Assembly (NCBI GenBank): GCA_965225855.1
Contig: CBDDCK010000001.1
Location: 64,001-128,000, forward strand
Direction: 5' to 3'
Source of the DNA: Spirochaetia bacterium
Lineage (GTDB): Bacteria > Spirochaetota > Spirochaetia > SP-2023
Length of the DNA: 64,000 nt
Below the pieces are notes generated by a model. The model was not told the DNA's origin. It searched no databases and saw only the letters and a program-made list of their open reading frames with translations. Numbering within the stretch: the first letter of the stretch is position 1; every line of letters starts with the position of its first letter. Positions 487-12,759 of this stretch are shown here, piece after piece. A program made the translations under genes and the position numbers.

Positions 487-2013
487 ATGAATGATAAAAC
501 TATTTTCCCTATATTTTTAGCTTCGTTGTTTCTTTTCTTGTTATTGAGTTGCTCCAGCACTGATGAACATGATCGTGCTGAATTGGTTGCTGAAGTTCCT
601 TTTTTACATATACCACCTTTGCTGGATACAGCCAAAGGTAAGGTTACTTTGCGTGCTCAAAAAGGGGAGCATCAAATAATTCCCGGTATTTTCAGTTCTA
701 GTATGGGTTATAATGGTTGGTTTTTAGGGCCAGCTATATTATTGCACAAAGGTAAACAGGCCCAAATTGAAGTGGTGAATGAGCTAGGGGAAGGAACTAC
801 TCTTCATTCTCATGGGGCTATTATTCCTGGTTCAGCAGATGGGGGCCCCAGTAAAATTATTGAAGCTGGTACTTCTTGGTTGCTCGAATTTACCGTCGAT
901 CAGCCGGCAGCAACGCTTTGGTTTCATCCCCATAAAATGGGGAGCACGGCTGCGCAAGTTTGGCAAGGTTTGGCTGGCCTATATATCGTCAGTGATCGAG
1001 ACATTGAAAACCTGCCTCTACCGAAGGATTATGGTAGAGATGATATTCCTATTGTGATTCAAGAACGTTACCTTGATGATCATGGCGAAATGTTGCCTTA
1101 TGAGGACGTTGCTTCTAATCATATGGCGGTGATGAATGGTGTGGGCGGTAATGCGATTTTGATTAATGGGCAGCTGCAGCCCAAATTAGACGCCGCTAGT
1201 GGTTGGTTGCGCCTACGCCTTTTAAATAGTTCTAATGCTAGCAGTTACCGTTTTAGTTTCTACAATCAGCAGCAGAAAAAGCCTATAAATTTTTATCGGA
1301 TTGCCACAGAACAAGGGCTTTTAAATAAGCCGGAAAAGCGAATGCACTTGGACTTGGCAACGGGTAGTCGCACGGAAGTTATGCTTGAATTGCCAAAACA
1401 AGCAGACACGATTCAGCTAGAATTGGCATTGTGGGATCGCAATCTCGATGCGCCCAGTCGGAATCGCTACCCCGTTATGAATATCGAAGTGAATCCCAAA
1501 CAAACGGCCAAAGGCCAATTGCCGGAAATACTGCATGATTCAGATGGTTCAGAACAACAGCAACGCATGATAGAATTGCAAACGATAGCAAACCAGCTCG
1601 CAGAAGCAAGCGAACAAAAAACCACACAACGGAATTTTGAGCTTCAAATGATGAACGGCTCAATGATGTCTCGAGATGGCGCATCACCATATAGTATTAA
1701 CGGCGATGCTTTTCAGGCAAATGCCATTAATTTTGATGTTTCTAAAGGCCGCTATGAAGTTTGGCGATTCACTACCGATATGCTTGGCCATCCGGTTCAC
1801 ATCCACGGTGTACAGTTTCGCATCTTAAAATCTGCCTGGCAACCACAAGGTAGCTCTGGTTGGCATGATACATTTACGATTCAAACGGAAGGCGAAGCAA
1901 TAGTTCTTCTTCGTTTTCCTGAAAATGCCGATGAGGAAAACCCTTACATGCTCCACTGCCACATGTTGGAACATGAAGAAGCGGGCATGATGGCTGCGTT
2001 TACTGTCAGCTAG
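487..2013 (+). CDS. Multicopper oxidase (CueO/SufI family), lipoprotein
   Basis: Copper motifs LHSHG, WFHPH, HPVHIHG and HCHMLEHEEAGMM; N-terminal lipobox LLLSC; no twin-arginine signal. Confidence 0.92.
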   Translation: MNDKTIFPIFLASLFLFLLLSCSSTDEHDRAELVAEVPFLHIPPLLDTAKGKVTLRAQKGEHQIIPGIFSSSMGYNGWFLGPAILLHKGKQAQIEVVNELGEGTTLHSHGAIIPGSADGGPSKIIEAGTSWLLEFTVDQPAATLWFHPHKMGSTAAQVWQGLAGLYIVSDRDIENLPLPKDYGRDDIPIVIQERYLDDHGEMLPYEDVASNHMAVMNGVGGNAILINGQLQPKLDAASGWLRLRLLNSSNASSYRFSFYNQQQKKPINFYRIATEQGLLNKPEKRMHLDLATGSRTEVMLELPKQADTIQLELALWDRNLDAPSRNRYPVMNIEVNPKQTAKGQLPEILHDSDGSEQQQRMIELQTIANQLAEASEQKTTQRNFELQMMNGSMMSRDGASPYSINGDAFQANAINFDVSKGRYEVWRFTTDMLGHPVHIHGVQFRILKSAWQPQGSSGWHDTFTIQTEGEAIVLLRFPENADEENPYMLHCHMLEHEEAGMMAAFTVS

Positions 2014-2032: not shown

Positions 2033-2164
2033 TTATTGGCAAGCTTCACAATCAGGGTCGCTTAGCACACAAAGTCGCACCTCCTGATTGTGTTCCAGCA
2101 TGTTTTCGCTCATAATGAAATCTTCCTCTTGCTGCTCAAGATCATCCCAATCCAACATGTTCAT
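2033..2164 (-). CDS. Unannotated 43-aa peptide carrying an NrdA-type C-terminal redox-cysteine tail (MNMLDWDDLEQQEEDFIMSENMLEHNQEVRLCVLSDPDCEACQ)
   Basis: Hand translation: ATG at 2164-2162, TAA at 2035-2033, RBS-like GAGGGG at 2179-2174; ends in C-x3-DPDCEACQ, typical of NrdA C-termini. Confidence 0.75.
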   Translation of the reverse strand: MNMLDWDDLEQQEEDFIMSENMLEHNQEVRLCVLSDPDCEACQ

Positions 2165-2243
2165 TTTTTATTTCCCCTCACTTTACTTTTTTATATTCTT
2201 CGACTGTTAGCTAGAGCTTCTCAAATATTTTTTGTATAAAATT

Positions 2244-4586
2244 TTAATTCCCCCCTATAGATATTGATTTTTCTGTAGATGTTGCACCTAGTCCGCGTAA
2301 ATAATACGTTGTTTTTAAGCCACGTAACCAAGCTATACGATAGGTTATATCAATTTTTTTTCCGTTAGCCTGCCCCATATAAATATTGAGAGACTGGGCT
2401 TGGTCAATCCATTTTTGCCTGCGGGCTGCAGCTTCTATTGTCCAGCGTGGGTCTAATTCAAAAGCGGTTAAATATCTTTGTTTAAGTTCTTCGGGAATAG
2501 ACTCGATATGCTGCACGCTGCCACCTGAACGTTTGAGCTTTTCCAGTAGCTCATTGGTCCACAAGCCCAAGGCACGCAATTCTGCCACTAAATAACGGTT
2601 AATGATGGTAAATTCTCCCGACAAGTTGGACTTGACGTAGACATTTTGAAAAGTGGGCTCTATAGATTGGCTAACTCCGACAATATTGGATATTGTTGCT
2701 GTAGGGGCAATTGCCATCACGTTAGAATTTCGCATACCTTCACGTACTTTTTGCCGCAATTCAGACCAATCCAAATTTTGACTGCGGTCGAGTTCTAAAT
2801 AATCCTCACCACGATTTTGGGCTAGTAATTCAATACTGTCAATAGGCAGTATACCTTGGTGCCATAGTGAATTGACAAAAGTTTTATAGCTCCCTCGCTC
2901 TTTGGCCAAATTGTGTGAAGCTTCAATCGCATAGTAGGAAATCCATTCAACAGAATTATCGGCAAATTGAACTGCCTCCTCCGAGCTAAAAGAAATACCC
3001 AATTTATACAGTGCATCTTGAAAACCCATCATGCCCAGACCGACTGGACGGTGTTGCATATTACTTTGGCGGGCTTTGTCTACAGCGTAATAATTAATAT
3101 CAATTACATTGTCTAACATTCGCATGGCCGTGCGAATAGTTTGCCGCAGCTTATTTTTTTGCAACTCGCCATTTTCAATATGCGCTGCCAAATTGATAGA
3201 ACCCAAATTACAAACCGCTATTTCTTTGTCGTTGGTATTTAAGGTAATTTCTGTACAAAGATTTGATGAATGCACTTGGCCAACGTGTTGTTGTGGGTTG
3301 CGCAAGTTGCAAGGGTCTTTAAAAGTCATCCATGGGTGCCCCGTTTCAAATAACATGGATAGGATTTTGCGCCACAAGGTTACAGCTTCCAACTTTTTGT
3401 GCCATAATTTTCCATCTACAGCCAACACTTGGTATTCTGCGTATCGCTCTTCAAATGCACGACCGTAAAGGTCGTGTAGGTCGCTGACATCGGAAGGGGA
3501 AAATAAAAACCACGGGCCGTTTTCTAATACTCGTTTTACTAGCAAATCTGGTACCCAAATTGCGGTATTCATATCGTGGGTACGGCGGCGTTCGTCTCCA
3601 GTATTTTTGCGCAGCTCTATAAACTCTTCAATATCCAAATGCCAAACTTCTAAGTAAGCGCAAGTGGCTCCTTTGCGCTTCCCACCTTGGTTTACAGCTA
3701 CCGCTGTATCGTTTACGACTTTTAAAAACGGAACAACCCCTTGGCTTTTACCATTGGTTCCTTTGATATGCGACCCCATAGCCCTAACGGGCGTCCAATC
3801 GTTGCCCAAGCCGCCAGCCCATTTCGATAACATAGCGTTGTCATGGATTGCATTAAAAATACCGTCCAGATCATCGGGTACGGTAGTTAAATAACAAGAT
3901 GATAATTGAGAATGCAGAGTACCTGAATTAAACAAAGTTGGGGTTGAGGTCATATAGTCAAAACTAGAAATTAAATTATAAAACTCAATAGCCCTTTGTG
4001 TGGGTTGCTGTTCTTGCAAAGCAAGCCCCATGGCCACACGCATAAAAAATATTTGGGGCAGCTCTAAGCGAACATTGTCTTGATTTAAGAAATAACGGTC
4101 GTAGAGAGTTTGCAATCCGATATATTGAAATTGCAGATCACGTTCTGGTTTTAGGGCATCGGCGAGTGTTTCTAAGTCAAAACGAGTTGCCATTTCTGGT
4201 GTTAGCAATTCCGCTTCAATACCTTTTGGGATATATACGAGGAAAATTTGTCTATAAATATCTTTTAAATTTTGTTGATTGGAAAGGTCTATATCTTGGA
4301 TATGATAAGCTTTGCGAATGTCTTCTGAAAATAATTTGTACAGCAGCAACCTAGCCGCAACATAACTATAATTGGGTTCCCGCTCAACTAATGTGCGGCT
4401 ATTGATTAGCAAGGCCGTATGCAATTCTGATTGGGTAATGCCTTTGTATAGACTGCGCAGCGTGTTGTTTAGAATTTCTTGGCCATCAACTCTGGCCACA
4501 TCTTGCACTGCATAGTGAATGATTTCCTGTATTAGATTTGTGTCAAAAGATTGATTTTCTCTTAATAGAGATTTGTCTACAAGCAT
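2244..4586 (-). CDS. nrdA: Ribonucleoside-diphosphate reductase class Ia alpha subunit, lacking the C-terminal cysteine tail
   Basis: TPTLFNSG, QLSSCYL, SSNLCTEI (radical Cys), VCNLGS, APTATIS and KTTYYLR motifs; N-terminus resembles a single degenerate ATP-cone; ends ATSTEKSISIGGN with no Cys pair. Confidence 0.95.
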   Translation of the reverse strand: MLVDKSLLRENQSFDTNLIQEIIHYAVQDVARVDGQEILNNTLRSLYKGITQSELHTALLINSRTLVEREPNYSYVAARLLLYKLFSEDIRKAYHIQDIDLSNQQNLKDIYRQIFLVYIPKGIEAELLTPEMATRFDLETLADALKPERDLQFQYIGLQTLYDRYFLNQDNVRLELPQIFFMRVAMGLALQEQQPTQRAIEFYNLISSFDYMTSTPTLFNSGTLHSQLSSCYLTTVPDDLDGIFNAIHDNAMLSKWAGGLGNDWTPVRAMGSHIKGTNGKSQGVVPFLKVVNDTAVAVNQGGKRKGATCAYLEVWHLDIEEFIELRKNTGDERRRTHDMNTAIWVPDLLVKRVLENGPWFLFSPSDVSDLHDLYGRAFEERYAEYQVLAVDGKLWHKKLEAVTLWRKILSMLFETGHPWMTFKDPCNLRNPQQHVGQVHSSNLCTEITLNTNDKEIAVCNLGSINLAAHIENGELQKNKLRQTIRTAMRMLDNVIDINYYAVDKARQSNMQHRPVGLGMMGFQDALYKLGISFSSEEAVQFADNSVEWISYYAIEASHNLAKERGSYKTFVNSLWHQGILPIDSIELLAQNRGEDYLELDRSQNLDWSELRQKVREGMRNSNVMAIAPTATISNIVGVSQSIEPTFQNVYVKSNLSGEFTIINRYLVAELRALGLWTNELLEKLKRSGGSVQHIESIPEELKQRYLTAFELDPRWTIEAAARRQKWIDQAQSLNIYMGQANGKKIDITYRIAWLRGLKTTYYLRGLGATSTEKSISIGGN

Positions 4587-4680: not shown

Positions 4681-4739
4681 ACCACAATATATTGTGGTTT
4701 CTCTACCATTTATTGGGTAAAACATACAACATATTGCGC
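4681..4739. promoter_or_regulatory. Tandem NrdR boxes upstream of nrdA
   Basis: Perfect palindrome ACCACAATATATTGTGGT (4681-4698), plus CCATTTATTG (4706-4715) and CAACATATTG (4727-4736); centres 21 bp apart; fits the NrdR consensus acaCwAtATaTwGtgt. Confidence 0.85.
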
Positions 4740-4969
4740 TACTATGATAAGAATCGTGGGTAAACTGTCAAGCAATCAAGACGGAAAATCCCATAAAAAC
4801 TATAATTGACTTAAAACAATATAATTAAGATTTTTATAGTTTTTATTATATTTAAATTAAAATAGATACTTTAAATAACTTCATTTAAATCATAGAATAT
4901 TCTCCATTTAATTTAGAGAAATTTTTGAGTCATAAATTTTTTTATTTGCGCTAGATTGAGGAGGTTATT

Positions 4970-5716
4970 TTGTTTGGCTTTGTTAGGGATTTTTTTCATA
5001 TTTTTGTAAATAACGATAAGATAAAAAAGCAGCAAAAACAATTATGCCTGAAAATTTTATTTTGTTTGTTGTTAGGGTTTCATTTCCAGCAGCCATTAAC
5101 TGCTAGAAAAATTCCGAATAAAACGGTAGAGAAAGCTGCTAGAAGCGCGTCCAGCTTACTATCCTTACAGCGTAGCCCATTTTTTGATTCTTTAGGGATT
5201 CAACTAGGCGTAGCCTATGGCCACAATGAAGTAAAAAATTTAAAATCTTGGAGGGGCTTGATCTTTGGTGGTGGTATTGTTAGCGATCTCCATATTTTCC
5301 GTGAGACTTGGCTAAAAATGGGTTTGGGTTTGAATTTACAAGCAGAATTTTATTTTTTGCCGGAAAATGAAAAACCTTTTTATTTAGCTGAAGAGGGTTA
5401 TTTGCGTTTGTTGTCCCTGCGTTTTGAAAATCGCTTGAGTTTTTTTCCAGTAGATTTTTTATATTTTGGGCCCGGGGTGGCATTATCGGTAAACCTAACA
5501 GGTTCATTGGGTGATGCTGAACGCGGGGAAATCAAAACATATGAGAGCTTCCTAATACCCTATATTACATTTCATGTTGGCTATAAACATCGAAAACCTA
5601 TTTTGCAAAGCATTCGGTGGGCTGTTGGACTAGATGGCAGGATTACTGTAAATAATGAAGCCCATTTTGAATTGGGTGCTCGAATCAGTTTTACCTATCA
5701 ATTTAGCAAAAAATGA
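4970..5716 (+). CDS. Hypothetical protein, probable outer-membrane beta-barrel
   Basis: GAGGAGG RBS before the TTG; signal-like hydrophobic segment; amphipathic strands; C-terminal strand GARISFTYQF. Confidence 0.6.
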   Translation: MFGFVRDFFHIFVNNDKIKKQQKQLCLKILFCLLLGFHFQQPLTARKIPNKTVEKAARSASSLLSLQRSPFFDSLGIQLGVAYGHNEVKNLKSWRGLIFGGGIVSDLHIFRETWLKMGLGLNLQAEFYFLPENEKPFYLAEEGYLRLLSLRFENRLSFFPVDFLYFGPGVALSVNLTGSLGDAERGEIKTYESFLIPYITFHVGYKHRKPILQSIRWAVGLDGRITVNNEAHFELGARISFTYQFSKK

Positions 5717-6756
5717 GAATTTTTATGCCCGTAGTATTAGCAAATTATACAAATTTATTTTGTAAAAAAATTTTTTACTGGTTTGGTGTTTTCTTGCTGT
5801 TGATTCTATTTTTCAGTTGTTCGCAAGAGGGCTCTCCGTTTACTGTAGATGCGGCTAACCATTCTCCCTTTGGGGTTCATACACGCCAAATTTTGAACAG
5901 CTTGCGCTATTTGCCAGATGACCCTGCTGATATGAGTGCTAGCGACCTCAAATTTTTCCGCAACAAGCCTTGGGTTGTGATAGAGGCCATCAGTTCAAAA
6001 TTTACACCTAAATACGGTAAGGCTAACGATTTTTACCAAGATTTTGACATCCGCATGAGCCACATGAAATATTTGATACACACAAGGGCCTTTGCCGACG
6101 AGATAGTAGAACGAGGTTTTGCCATGTCTGAGAAAAAGTCTAGGCCCTTTGCTCTCAAAGAACAAGAGCTTCGCTCCTCTATATATCGCAAGCTGGATAC
6201 TGAATTTCACATTCATCCGCTAGAAATACTTTTGCTATTGCGCAATATGCATTACAAGCTACGAGTTGCAAATAAGGCTAACTACCATGCTCATACGTAT
6301 AGAGCACTTCTTGGCAAAATGGGGCGCTTTGAGCCTAAAATCCCCTTTACGGGTTGGGACCCGATTAAAGGATTTGGCACTCGGGGCGCAGCACGGCAAT
6401 ACTCTAAAATCCCCTTTACAGGTTGGGACCCGATTAAAGATGGTGGCTTTAAACCAGAGCAAATTGTTTGGCTCAACAGTACAAAAGTTATTCCAGATCT
6501 TATGATTCATGAAATATTGCATAACTGGGGCTATAACCATACGCCTCTAAATCAAGACCTTGATGCTCCTTATAGGGTCCAACTTGCTATCCTTAAGATT
6601 TATATTGTTGATAACCCCCCCAGAAAAAAACTTTATGAACAGCACAGTAAAAGCGGAAAGTTACCGACCATTTTTAATGTCAAAAAAACAGCAAAATTGA
6701 CTACGAAATATGACCAACCCAAGCCAAAGCCAAAGTCAAAAAACAGGCAAAATTGA
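5713..6756 (+). CDS. Putative lipoprotein zinc metalloprotease (metzincin-like)
   Basis: Lipobox LFFSC; HEILHNWGYNH fits HEXXHXXGXXH; ATGA overlap with the upstream gene. Confidence 0.7.
   Translation: MRIFMPVVLANYTNLFCKKIFYWFGVFLLLILFFSCSQEGSPFTVDAANHSPFGVHTRQILNSLRYLPDDPADMSASDLKFFRNKPWVVIEAISSKFTPKYGKANDFYQDFDIRMSHMKYLIHTRAFADEIVERGFAMSEKKSRPFALKEQELRSSIYRKLDTEFHIHPLEILLLLRNMHYKLRVANKANYHAHTYRALLGKMGRFEPKIPFTGWDPIKGFGTRGAARQYSKIPFTGWDPIKDGGFKPEQIVWLNSTKVIPDLMIHEILHNWGYNHTPLNQDLDAPYRVQLAILKIYIVDNPPRKKLYEQHSKSGKLPTIFNVKKTAKLTTKYDQPKPKPKSKNRQN
6335..6439 (+). repeat. Two 36-bp direct repeats (one mismatch) separated by 33 bp, in frame within the metalloprotease gene
   Basis: CTAAAATCCCCTTTAC(G/A)GGTTGGGACCCGATTAAAG at 6335-6370 and 6404-6439; encodes KIPFTGWDPIK twice. 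Confidence 0.9.
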
Positions 6757-10844: not shown

Positions 10845-10938
10845 GGCCTTGACGCAACACCCCCCCTAGCAAAATGGGGCGCTGTACACTAGCCCGTATG
10901 GGTTGGTTAATCTTTACCCATTTTTGGAGGTATTGCTT
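10845..10938 (+). promoter_or_regulatory. Conserved leader/promoter of surface lipoprotein copy 1
   Basis: TTGACG (10849-10854), C7 tract (10860-10866), hairpin-forming leader and GGAGG RBS; identical to the reverse complement of 54318-54410 except for the C-tract length. Confidence 0.7.
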
Positions 10939-12759
10939 ATGTATAAGCTCAAACTACTTTTATTGCCTGTAGCCTGGCTACTGGCCTTTATGGCCTTTGC
11001 CTGCGCCCCACCCGATGACAACGATGACAATGGTGCGCCGTCTTCTGGGCCGACTATCAATAACGCCATCTACGACTTTGCTACGGCTCTGTTAACCGTA
11101 CAAGGTACTGACTTAAGTCCTACAGAAGCGCAAATCCAAACCATCGTAGTAGATGGTGTAGCCTTAAGTTCCTATACTGCAGATGCTAAACCCACTGGGC
11201 CAGATAGTAGCGGTCTTGCAGAAGGTAAGTACCGTATGAAAAGCGATGGCACAGCGCTTTGGCTTAGACTTACCAATCAACATAAATCTACTCTGAATGG
11301 CAAGGTGGGTAGCAATGGTCTAAAAAAAGGGTTGCTTAGCGTTGGCTCTGGTGCTTGGGCGGGTTTAAATACAGCCAAAGACTTAACCGTTAGGAATATA
11401 CCCGATAAGCAGTCTAAAGTATCCGATGACAATCAGCCATCTAAGCAAACTGAAGAAGCTGAACAAGACGAACAAGCTGAAGAAGTCGAACAAGCTGAAG
11501 ATAAGCAGTCGCCTGAACTACCCGAAGCCGAACAAACCGAAGAAGTCGAACAAACCGAAGAAGTCGAACAAGCTGAAGATAAGCAGTCGCCTAAGCAACC
11601 TAAAGACGAACAAGTCGAACAAGCTGAAGAAGAGTCGCCTGAACTACCCGAAGCTGCAATTACCCGTGCAACCTACAATGTTATTTTAGGCTTGTTAGTG
11701 ATTACAGGTACTAATTTACCAGCAGCAGTTGCAAGATGGGACTTTAGCAAATTGACGCTTGTATCCGGTGATGGTACTAATAGATACACATTACCCCGGC
11801 CAGAAAAAGAAGCCGTAGGTTTTGAAAGTAGAAACAGAGCCATAGGTTCTAATGCAAGTACAACAGGCTTACAGATTACTTTAATTGGTAGTGTAAAAGC
11901 GGAAGCCGAGAAGATACTGGTTAACGATGGTGTTCGTGATGCTAATGGTGCATACAACCTGGAAGCAGCAGCAGGATTTGCAGGTGGTAGCGCTGAAGAC
12001 ACAACCAACTCGATTACCGTTAGCGGGTATACAGCCAGCATCACCGAAGTAGACTACAATGCTAATACAGGCGAGTTATCTATTAGAGGTATCAAGTTAC
12101 CGAGAGCAGTTGCAGACTGGGACTTTAGCAAATTGACGCTTGTATCCGGTGATGGTAGTAAGAGATACCCATTACCCCGGCACGAAACTGCAGGTGAAAA
12201 CACAGCCACAGGTTCTCGTGCAGGTACAACCTACTTAAGTATTACTTTAAGCGGTAGTGTAAAAGCGGAAGCCGAGAAGATACTGGTTAAGGAAGGTGTT
12301 CGTGATGCTAATGGTGCATACAACCTGGAAGCAGCAGCAGAATTTTTACCTGGTAGCGCAGAAGACCTAACCAACCCGATTACCGTTAGCGGGTATACAG
12401 CCAGCATCAGCTCCGTAACCTACGATGCTTATTTAGGCGAGTTAACTATTAGAGGTATCAGGTTACCGAGAGCAGTTACAGACTGGGACTTTAGCAAATT
12501 GACGATTGTATCCGGTGATGGTAGTAAGAGATACCCATTACCCCGGCACTCAACTGCAGGTGCAAACAGAGCCACAGGTTCTCGTGCAGATGCAACAAGA
12601 TTAACGATTACTTTAAGCGGTAATGTAAAAGCCAAAGTCAATGTTATACTGGTTAAGATTGGTAAAAGTGATAATGCTGGTGCATATAACCTGGAAGCAG
12701 CAGCAGAATTTGTATCTGGTAGTCCAGAAGACCTAACCACTAGTATTAATGTTATATAA
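10939..12759 (+). CDS. Modular repeat surface lipoprotein, copy 1 (domain A, acidic linker, three B domains)
   Basis: ATG 10939 after GGAGG; lipobox FMAFAC; domain A about 11050-11403; E/Q-rich linker 11404-11655; about 122-aa B repeats at about 11656, 12031 and 12397 with the WDFSKLTLVSGDG core; paralog of 52626-54317. Confidence 0.85.
   Translation: MYKLKLLLLPVAWLLAFMAFACAPPDDNDDNGAPSSGPTINNAIYDFATALLTVQGTDLSPTEAQIQTIVVDGVALSSYTADAKPTGPDSSGLAEGKYRMKSDGTALWLRLTNQHKSTLNGKVGSNGLKKGLLSVGSGAWAGLNTAKDLTVRNIPDKQSKVSDDNQPSKQTEEAEQDEQAEEVEQAEDKQSPELPEAEQTEEVEQTEEVEQAEDKQSPKQPKDEQVEQAEEESPELPEAAITRATYNVILGLLVITGTNLPAAVARWDFSKLTLVSGDGTNRYTLPRPEKEAVGFESRNRAIGSNASTTGLQITLIGSVKAEAEKILVNDGVRDANGAYNLEAAAGFAGGSAEDTTNSITVSGYTASITEVDYNANTGELSIRGIKLPRAVADWDFSKLTLVSGDGSKRYPLPRHETAGENTATGSRAGTTYLSITLSGSVKAEAEKILVKEGVRDANGAYNLEAAAEFLPGSAEDLTNPITVSGYTASISSVTYDAYLGELTIRGIRLPRAVTDWDFSKLTIVSGDGSKRYPLPRHSTAGANRATGSRADATRLTITLSGNVKAKVNVILVKIGKSDNAGAYNLEAAAEFVSGSPEDLTTSINVI

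Follow-up and report, generated by a model that had tools for sequence, protein, structure and literature searches.

Can the redox tail that serves the active site of a class I ribonucleotide reductase (RNR) be encoded apart from the catalytic subunit? This question is raised by a 64,000-nucleotide stretch of the genome of a Spirochaetia bacterium (assembly GCA_965225855.1, contig CBDDCK010000001.1, positions 64,001 to 128,000 of the forward strand), here called the window, in which nrdA, the gene for the RNR alpha subunit, ends without C-terminal cysteines and is followed by a separate open reading frame (ORF) for a 43-residue peptide. RNR turnover leaves a disulfide in the active site, which is reduced by a Cys pair of the C-terminal tail and recharged by thioredoxin or glutaredoxin, and the available text of the same source treats the dynamics of this tail as an open question (PMC11903788). 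An earlier note on this DNA, made from the sequence alone, had proposed that the peptide is the missing tail and acts in trans. Comparative evidence supports this proposal, because the arrangement is conserved in the genus, the peptide is under selection, the peptide genes have their own ribosome sites, and tail loss and free peptide co-occur in a second lineage in which the two genes lie far apart.

Results

The alpha subunit ends before the redox tail

The nrdA gene (2244..4586, minus strand) encodes a class I RNR alpha subunit of the Pseudomonas type (NrdAz), 780 aa in length. Its product matches NF005544 at 1365 bits, against a cut-off of 965, and reaches only 409 bits with NrdJ_Z. The Pfam domains PF02867 and PF00317 are present, and the ATP cone PF03477 was undetected in a Pfam search with expectation values (E) up to 1. 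In the alignment with P. aeruginosa NrdA (PDB 5im3_A; residues 161-918 of 963, 1162 bits) the break point falls 3' of the catalytic core. The final 45 residues of 5im3_A have no counterpart, since the alignment stops at 918 of 963, and its beginning at residue 161 is consistent with the lack of an N-terminal ATP cone.

All elements of a class Ia alpha core are found in NrdA, namely the thiyl Cys, the redox Cys pair, the Asn/Glu residues and the Tyr-Tyr relay, and an alignment of 39 sequences shows no variation at C231, N442, C444, E446, C459, Y761 and Y762. The covalently attached C-terminal Cys pair of class Ia alphas is absent, its motif sitting in the separate ORF; the complete cysteine set of NrdA consists of residues 231, 309, 426, 444 and 459, so that the last cysteine is at 459 of 780. 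Coordinates (4586-2244), sequence and cysteine list all agree with the earlier note's description of an NrdA that keeps its active-site motifs and ends without C-terminal cysteines. NrdA is the single PF02867 match genome-wide, and no other RNR alpha or NrdD was found in this 94% complete assembly.

A separate ORF encodes a tail-like peptide

The peptide gene lies at 2033..2164 on the minus strand, and the product of ORF 2164-2033 is MNMLDWDDLEQQEEDFIMSENMLEHNQEVRLCVLSDPDCEACQ. It has an alternative start at Met3 (2158) and counterparts in the genus, and 13 of its 43 residues are D or E and 1 is K or R. It ends in the redox motif C-x6-C-x2-C-Q-stop (Cys32, Cys39 and Cys42; 2033..2071, minus strand), the same end that fused NrdAz tails have. 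At its N-terminus is the motif M-L-[DN]-W-D (2144..2158, minus strand), which matches the L-x-W-[DE] of both NrdB ends and may be a docking tag. The peptide has no Pfam or NCBIfam match, and a search of the ESM Atlas returned unnamed clusters only (0.90-0.92), with recognition below the mark. A predicted complex of alpha and peptide scored 0.30, the threshold being 0.32.

A Shine-Dalgarno site, GAGGGG (2174..2179, minus strand), stands 9 nt ahead of the peptide ATG. Scored against an anti-Shine-Dalgarno sequence, its duplex energy is -8.4, and of 1500 ATGs picked at random from contig C5 of this genome 1.6% have a site as strong or stronger; for the peptide genes of the genus-mates, 1.1-4.8% of random ATGs have sites as strong. 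The pattern C-x6-C-[ED]-x-C-Q-stop has a single occurrence in this genome, at the peptide ORF, and because the pattern is unique and the arrangement recurs in all three genus-mates, the ORF is not a product of chance.

The 79-nt spacer between nrdA and the peptide gene (2165..2243, minus strand) is non-coding. Its three frames contain 2, 3 and 2 stops, so one sequencing error would be unable to fuse the two ORFs. It has no Rfam match (E up to 1) and no terminator-like site was called in it; no endonuclease gene, intron or intein was found in the spacers of the genus (79-133 nt). The junction (1800-2700) was compared with four sequencing runs. Run X3 spans all of it but may be the source of the assembly. 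Run X1 reaches the stretch in three pieces and run X5 has no cover over 2017-2202, and both were set aside. A contig of run X4, from another study, spans 1804-2700 with 10 substitutions and zero gaps, and one of these substitutions, at 2160, corresponds to the Asn2-to-Ser variant P0001. Because the X4 contig crosses the junction without indels, the junction is not an assembly error. Three points of the earlier note are thereby borne out: an ORF at 79 bp with its own GAGGGG site, several stops in every frame of the gap that preclude a single-error join, and a junction free of the misassembly that the note had named as a way in which it could be wrong.

The split is conserved within the genus

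The split nrdA and peptide gene are found in all four genomes of the genus, with NrdA identities of 79-81%. A contiguous NrdA in relatives, which the earlier note would have taken as a sign of recent decay, is absent from all three genus-mates, and the peptide ribosome site is conserved along with the split. As in this genome, NrdA of the genus-mates stops 19-30 residues past the start of the YYLR motif, and a separate ORF of 46-49 residues lies downstream. The four peptides have 16 invariant columns, located at both ends, which include the N-terminal M, L, W and D, all three cysteines, the terminal C-E-A-C-Q, and H25. The proportion of nonsynonymous differences (pN) in the peptide is 0.21-0.29, compared with a synonymous proportion (pS) of 0.71-1.02 at which synonymous sites are saturated; pN/pS is 0.20-0.41 for the peptide and 0.13-0.19 for nrdA. 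Judged by these ratios, the peptide and nrdA are both under purifying selection.

The spacers, conserved neither in length nor in frame nor in sequence, measure 79, 133, 111 and 105 nt, place the peptide in frames 1, 1, 0 and 0 and have no common sequence block or fold. In G002 a GC-rich hairpin stands directly past the nrdA stop (L039:9773-9883; spacer fold -25.8 kcal/mol) and is absent from the other three spacers; read in the nrdA frame, the G002 spacer contains a C-x-x-C. The order nrdA-peptide-nrdB is found in G001 and G003, and in G002 nrdB is about 28 kb off. The earlier note had remarked that no nrdB is adjacent, which stands for the genome under study, where nrdB is on contig C5, and fails for G001 and G003, where nrdB directly follows the peptide gene.

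Among database proteins, a tail-less homologue (P0005) and a peptide (P0129) are assigned by NCBI to Candidatus Haliotispira prima, and P0007 and P0143, a fifth alpha-peptide pair, have adjacent accessions. In a quick tree of NrdA (46 of 59 candidate rows), eight tail-less alphas form one clade (Shimodaira-Hasegawa-like approximate likelihood ratio test, SH-aLRT, 100) among fused gammaproteobacterial sequences and apart from the other spirochaete alphas. This placement suggests that the clade goes back to a single horizontal import and a single split. Among the 120 homologues listed, PF03477 is found in 0 of 10 entries of the tail-less clade vs 110 of the 110 others.

Free peptides in other lineages

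Of 401 genomes of the class that were sampled, 61 have this type of alpha. Its C-terminus is fused to the tail in 51 (G005 being scored as fused from two overlapping contig ends), tail-less in 7, and unresolved in 3 because of contig ends or Ns. The seven tail-less genomes, namely the four of the genus and all three of family f6, represent two separate lineages. When the 61 genomes were scanned for the pattern C-E-x-C-Q-stop, with extra matches read and three ending in TGG left out, a free peptide was present in 7 of 7 tail-less vs 4 of 51 fused genomes, these four all belonging to genus g74. Extra pattern matches in G250, G116, G009:C7 and G165:C5 were rejected, as they have no start codon or lie inside other genes.

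The f6 alphas (2 of 3 in the tree) are placed elsewhere than the genus clade, and all three are directly followed by nrdB. The free peptides of the three f6 genomes (L280:1495-1647, L294:1471-1620 and L310, in G009, G046 and G136) end in C-x8-C-E-S-C-Q and are encoded at a distance from nrdA, which in G009 and G136 is on a different contig. In G009 and G046 the peptide gene lies behind a gene judged by eye to be CRP-like, and its start overlaps the stop of that gene.

The motif W-[ED]-D-W-D occurs in free peptides of genus g74 (L242, L244, L247 and L248) and of L146, L147, L171, L182 and L193; the genomes with these peptides have a fused tail as well. Among the 80 metagenome matches listed, 5 are free peptides of the g74 type, 74 are fused and 1 is cut. 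When 1.84 billion representatives were searched with a profile, 32 matched; 31 of these are 29-89 residues long, and several of the matches are probably contig-edge fragments of fused alphas.

The cysteine-pair end is fused in 109 of the 120 NrdA homologues among the matches listed. The tail-less protein P0027 was tried as a route to a tail-less donor lineage and rejected: among the 80 proteobacterial loci listed, the tail is fused wherever readable, that is in 76 of 78 loci; 2 loci are without the motif and 2 are cut by contig ends. In a quick tree P0027 marks a separate tail loss on a Pseudomonadaceae-related branch. P0027, P0127 and P0128, three members of one cluster, are tail-less NrdAs with an ATP cone and an identical end, and this group is possibly a further independent split. 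At another locus (L207, G384:C286) a remnant has a tail-like end immediately before a short piece resembling nrdB, and is apparently what is left of an nrdAB operon that collapsed.

Free peptides in prophage regions

Genome G001 carries two identical intact copies of a 41-residue peptide with a ribosome site (L239:2914-3039 and L241:2914-3039). They lie in Mu-like prophage regions, directly behind a Mu Gam-like gene and adjacent to genes for the portal and for terminase or head proteins. The same genome has three decayed copies that lack a start (L237, L238 and L240). The second copy in G046 (L309:7614-7823) lies before a replication initiator, between recombination and replication genes, in a prophage that also has RecE-like, repressor and tail genes. 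Two of the prophage copies have no PHROG match, a tblastn search of GenBank phages with the G001 prophage peptide gave no match, and 12 of 12 pattern matches on viral contigs are fused tails. Since these phage and viral-contig searches gave no free copy, carriage by phages is supported by prophage regions in just two genomes.

The N-terminal motif and the origin of the split

The earlier note had likened the MLDWDD start of the peptide to the N-terminus of NrdB, a likeness that holds in 54 of 55 NrdBs from proteobacterial loci, which start M-[LI]-[SNT]-[WF]-[DE], and extends to the NrdB C-terminus, where 43 of the same 55 end in L-x-W-[DE] and 11 more in L-x-W. In the genus, L-x-W-D ends all four NrdBs, and the full start motif is present in just one NrdB vs all four peptides. 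None of 61 distinct proteobacterial or 50 distinct spirochaete fused tails contains W-[DE], so the motif was gained rather than inherited with the tail. One role for it, which we put forward as plausible but somewhat less probable than its negation, is that the N-terminal L-x-W-D substitutes for the lost tether by binding alpha at the site of the NrdB C-terminus.

The split could have arisen after an nrdA-nrdB operon was acquired from a gammaproteobacterium. Tandem duplication of a segment spanning the nrdA-nrdB junction would have given a copy of the tail the ribosome site and opening codons of NrdB, and the fused tail would then have been lost. Such a duplication would account in a single event for the observed gene order, the start motif and the ribosome site. 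Local tail copies do arise, since G165 has a short tail-end duplicate, without a start codon, 95 nt behind its fused nrdA (L246:1906-1956).

NrdB, regulatory sites and neighboring genes

The earlier note had asked where nrdB is and had regarded a genome without one as a dead system. One nrdB is present, the sole copy, on contig C5 (G000:C5:887383-888270; L041:7273-8484) and unlinked from nrdA. Its product matches NF005550 at 387, compared with a cut-off of 309, and its best match among phage records is about 45% identical. The N-terminal L-x-W-D is missing. NrdB aligns with the proteins of the genus-mates at the metal-ligand, radical-tyrosine and C-terminal motifs, including an Asp and a Tyr that we take to be the first metal ligand and the radical tyrosine, respectively. 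Thioredoxin, glutaredoxins and nrdR are present in all four genomes of the genus.

A candidate sigma-70-like promoter for nrdA, and likely for the peptide gene also, lies at 4744..4771 on the minus strand; it agrees with the consensus at 11 of 12 positions and is the best of 14 sites (shuffle mean 8.2). Between it and nrdA is an NrdR-box-like palindrome (4683..4696), the only perfect match in the genome to the NrdR-box consensus, and matches with 0-2 mismatches are found at the nrdA start of all three genus-mates.

A gene for a CueO-like multicopper oxidase with a lipoprotein-like start (487-2013, plus strand) converges on the peptide gene and ends 19 nt from its stop; it does not neighbor the peptide gene in the genus-mates. 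Elsewhere in the window, an orphan ORF of 347 aa (5713-6756, plus strand) has an HEILH metallopeptidase-like motif, an internal duplication of about 12 residues and Pfam matches below cut-off only. An ORF at 10903-12759 (plus strand) encodes a 618-aa lipoprotein-like product with acidic low-complexity repeats and three longer repeated domains, and a 728-aa paralogue is found near nrdB on C5 (L041:10627-12813).

Discussion

We consider it probable, from the comparative evidence above, that the 43-residue peptide is a redox tail that re-reduces a tail-less class Ia alpha subunit in trans. The active-site disulfide is predicted to form between C231 and C459; the C-x2-C of the peptide (Cys39/Cys42) would enter the active site as a diffusible arm, and the oxidised peptide would be recharged by the glutaredoxin or thioredoxin of the cell.

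Several observations weigh against this assignment. The co-occurrence of tail loss and free peptide rests on just two independent origins, kin not being independent, and for this reason no statistical test is claimed. In genus g74, four of five genomes have a free peptide of 45-47 residues beside a single alpha with an intact fused tail, which means that free peptides do not in every case stand in for a missing tail. In f6 the peptides keep the cysteines and are without tryptophan, an acidic D-F-hydrophobic stretch alone being shared, which indicates that L-x-W-D is not needed in every lineage. The NrdB of the genome under study has 44-46% identity to those of the genus-mates, compared with 82-83% among the genus-mates, and stands on a very long branch in a tree that was likewise quick; no NrdR-box match was found upstream of its gene. 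This NrdB may have been replaced or may be fast-evolving. Lastly, small dithiols reduce the RNR active site in vitro without the tail, according to the available text of PMC4078304, so a tail-independent route is chemically possible.

The last point leaves room for a second explanation, in which the main role of the peptide is regulatory: as a mimic of the NrdB ends or a redox sensor, it would adjust the assembly of alpha with beta, and alpha would be re-reduced directly by some thiol, such as glutaredoxin or glutathione. The peptide does bear the L-x-W-[DE] of NrdB ends, the alphas of the clade lack the ATP cone and may need another control of activity, and free peptides occur beside fused tails in g74 and are also encoded in prophages. 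The invariance of the three cysteines and of C-E-A-C-Q in the genus is what a redox arm predicts, all seven tail-less genomes retain a free peptide, and it is the tryptophan motif, not the cysteines, that the f6 peptides have dropped. We therefore regard a mainly regulatory role as unlikely.

The three invariant cysteines, together with H25 and the many acidic residues, could also describe a metal or cluster carrier for assembly of the NrdB cofactor rather than a disulfide shuttle, and the position of the peptide gene between nrdA and nrdB in G001 and G003 would suit such a role. Fused NrdAz tails have the same C-x6-C-x2-C, H25 is missing from the G001 prophage copy, and presence of the peptide tracks loss of the alpha tail, all of which makes a carrier very improbable.

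Slightly less probable again is that alpha and tail are joined during expression, by ribosomal bypass, by a frameshift with read-through or by RNA splicing, even though in all four genomes of the genus nrdA is closely followed by the tail ORF, on one strand and in the ancestral order. Translational bypass of the T4 gene 60 type depends on a take-off codon and a landing codon that match, and its gap is conserved. Here only two of the four genomes have a landing codon that repeats the last codon of nrdA, and the spacers vary in length and frame, without a common block or fold or an Rfam match. Moreover, each ORF has a separate Shine-Dalgarno site, and the f6, g74 and prophage copies have no adjacent nrdA. 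That the split is an error of sequencing or assembly, or that nrdA is decaying as part of a dead system, is scarcely credible: the assembly is 94% complete and NrdB is highly divergent and unlinked, but the X4 contig is gap-free, three other species have the split, both ORFs are under purifying selection, no alternative RNR was found, and NrdB exceeds the NF005550 cut-off with its key motifs aligned.

If the peptide is indeed a tail acting in trans, the covalent tether is dispensable in class I, and a function is gained for small unannotated proteins, prophage genes included. The tether and the disorder of the tail make the re-reduction half-cycle difficult to study; with a natural tail-less alpha and a 43-residue arm this half-cycle becomes titratable, and binding, rates and trapped complexes become accessible via synthetic peptide. 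For tail-less NrdAs in databases, a remote peptide should be sought before they are called truncated or dead. We offer as speculation, more likely wrong than right in its entirety, that free tails are unrecognised, repeatedly evolved redox microproteins whose beta-end tag docks on alpha, where they would replace or supplement the arm and provide a new control point after loss of the ATP cone, and that temperate phages carry them in replication modules, raising host deoxynucleoside triphosphates without a reductase of their own.

How does this arrangement compare with known systems? It resembles the fused NrdAz tail of 5im3_A in its catalytic core and C-x6-C-x2-C-Q end, and differs in that the tail is encoded on its own, behind a ribosome site that serves it alone, in the added L-x-W-D and in the lack of a detectable ATP cone. 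In a literature search outside which most subscription journals lay, no paper on a free class I redox tail was found, and the available text of PMC9669993, by which much about RNR C-termini is unknown, mentions no detached class I tail; PMC9221315 and PMC2795772 yielded nothing of relevance. The yeast RNR tail enters the site of the adjacent subunit, according to the available text of PMC3618301. As with this eukaryotic R1 arm, the tail proposed here would serve the active site of another chain; the arm, by contrast, is still tethered within the alpha dimer.

A closer precedent is the split, B12-dependent class II enzyme NrdJa/NrdJb of P. aeruginosa, in which, as the available text of PMC4520616 describes, NrdJb supplies the C-terminal cysteines in trans. 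In both systems the catalytic and thiol-disulfide-exchange parts are on separate polypeptides, here at the level of the gene and in all four genomes of the genus. The enzyme studied here is class I rather than class II, since NF005544 is its best match, the Tyr-Tyr relay is in place and an NrdB is present. NrdJb is a sizeable subunit, whereas the peptides described here have 41-50 residues and are encoded by a gene that is sometimes distant from nrdA or in prophages.

Within class I, the mobE-fragmented NrdA-a/NrdA-b, from phage Aeh1 per the literature listing, also has an alpha made of two polypeptides; in the available text of PMC3045599 the break is due to insertion of a homing endonuclease, the active site is composite and the new termini are interaction tags. 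Here the active site is whole, detachment affects the redox tail alone, and the spacer is free of endonuclease genes. The earlier note had known of no such split in class I, which fails for splits as such, given the mobE case, and stands for a detached redox tail, which that case, as far as its available text goes, is not. The free class I tail is a real, repeatedly evolved and conserved detachment, the nearest known counterparts of which are NrdJa/NrdJb and the mobE-split NrdA.

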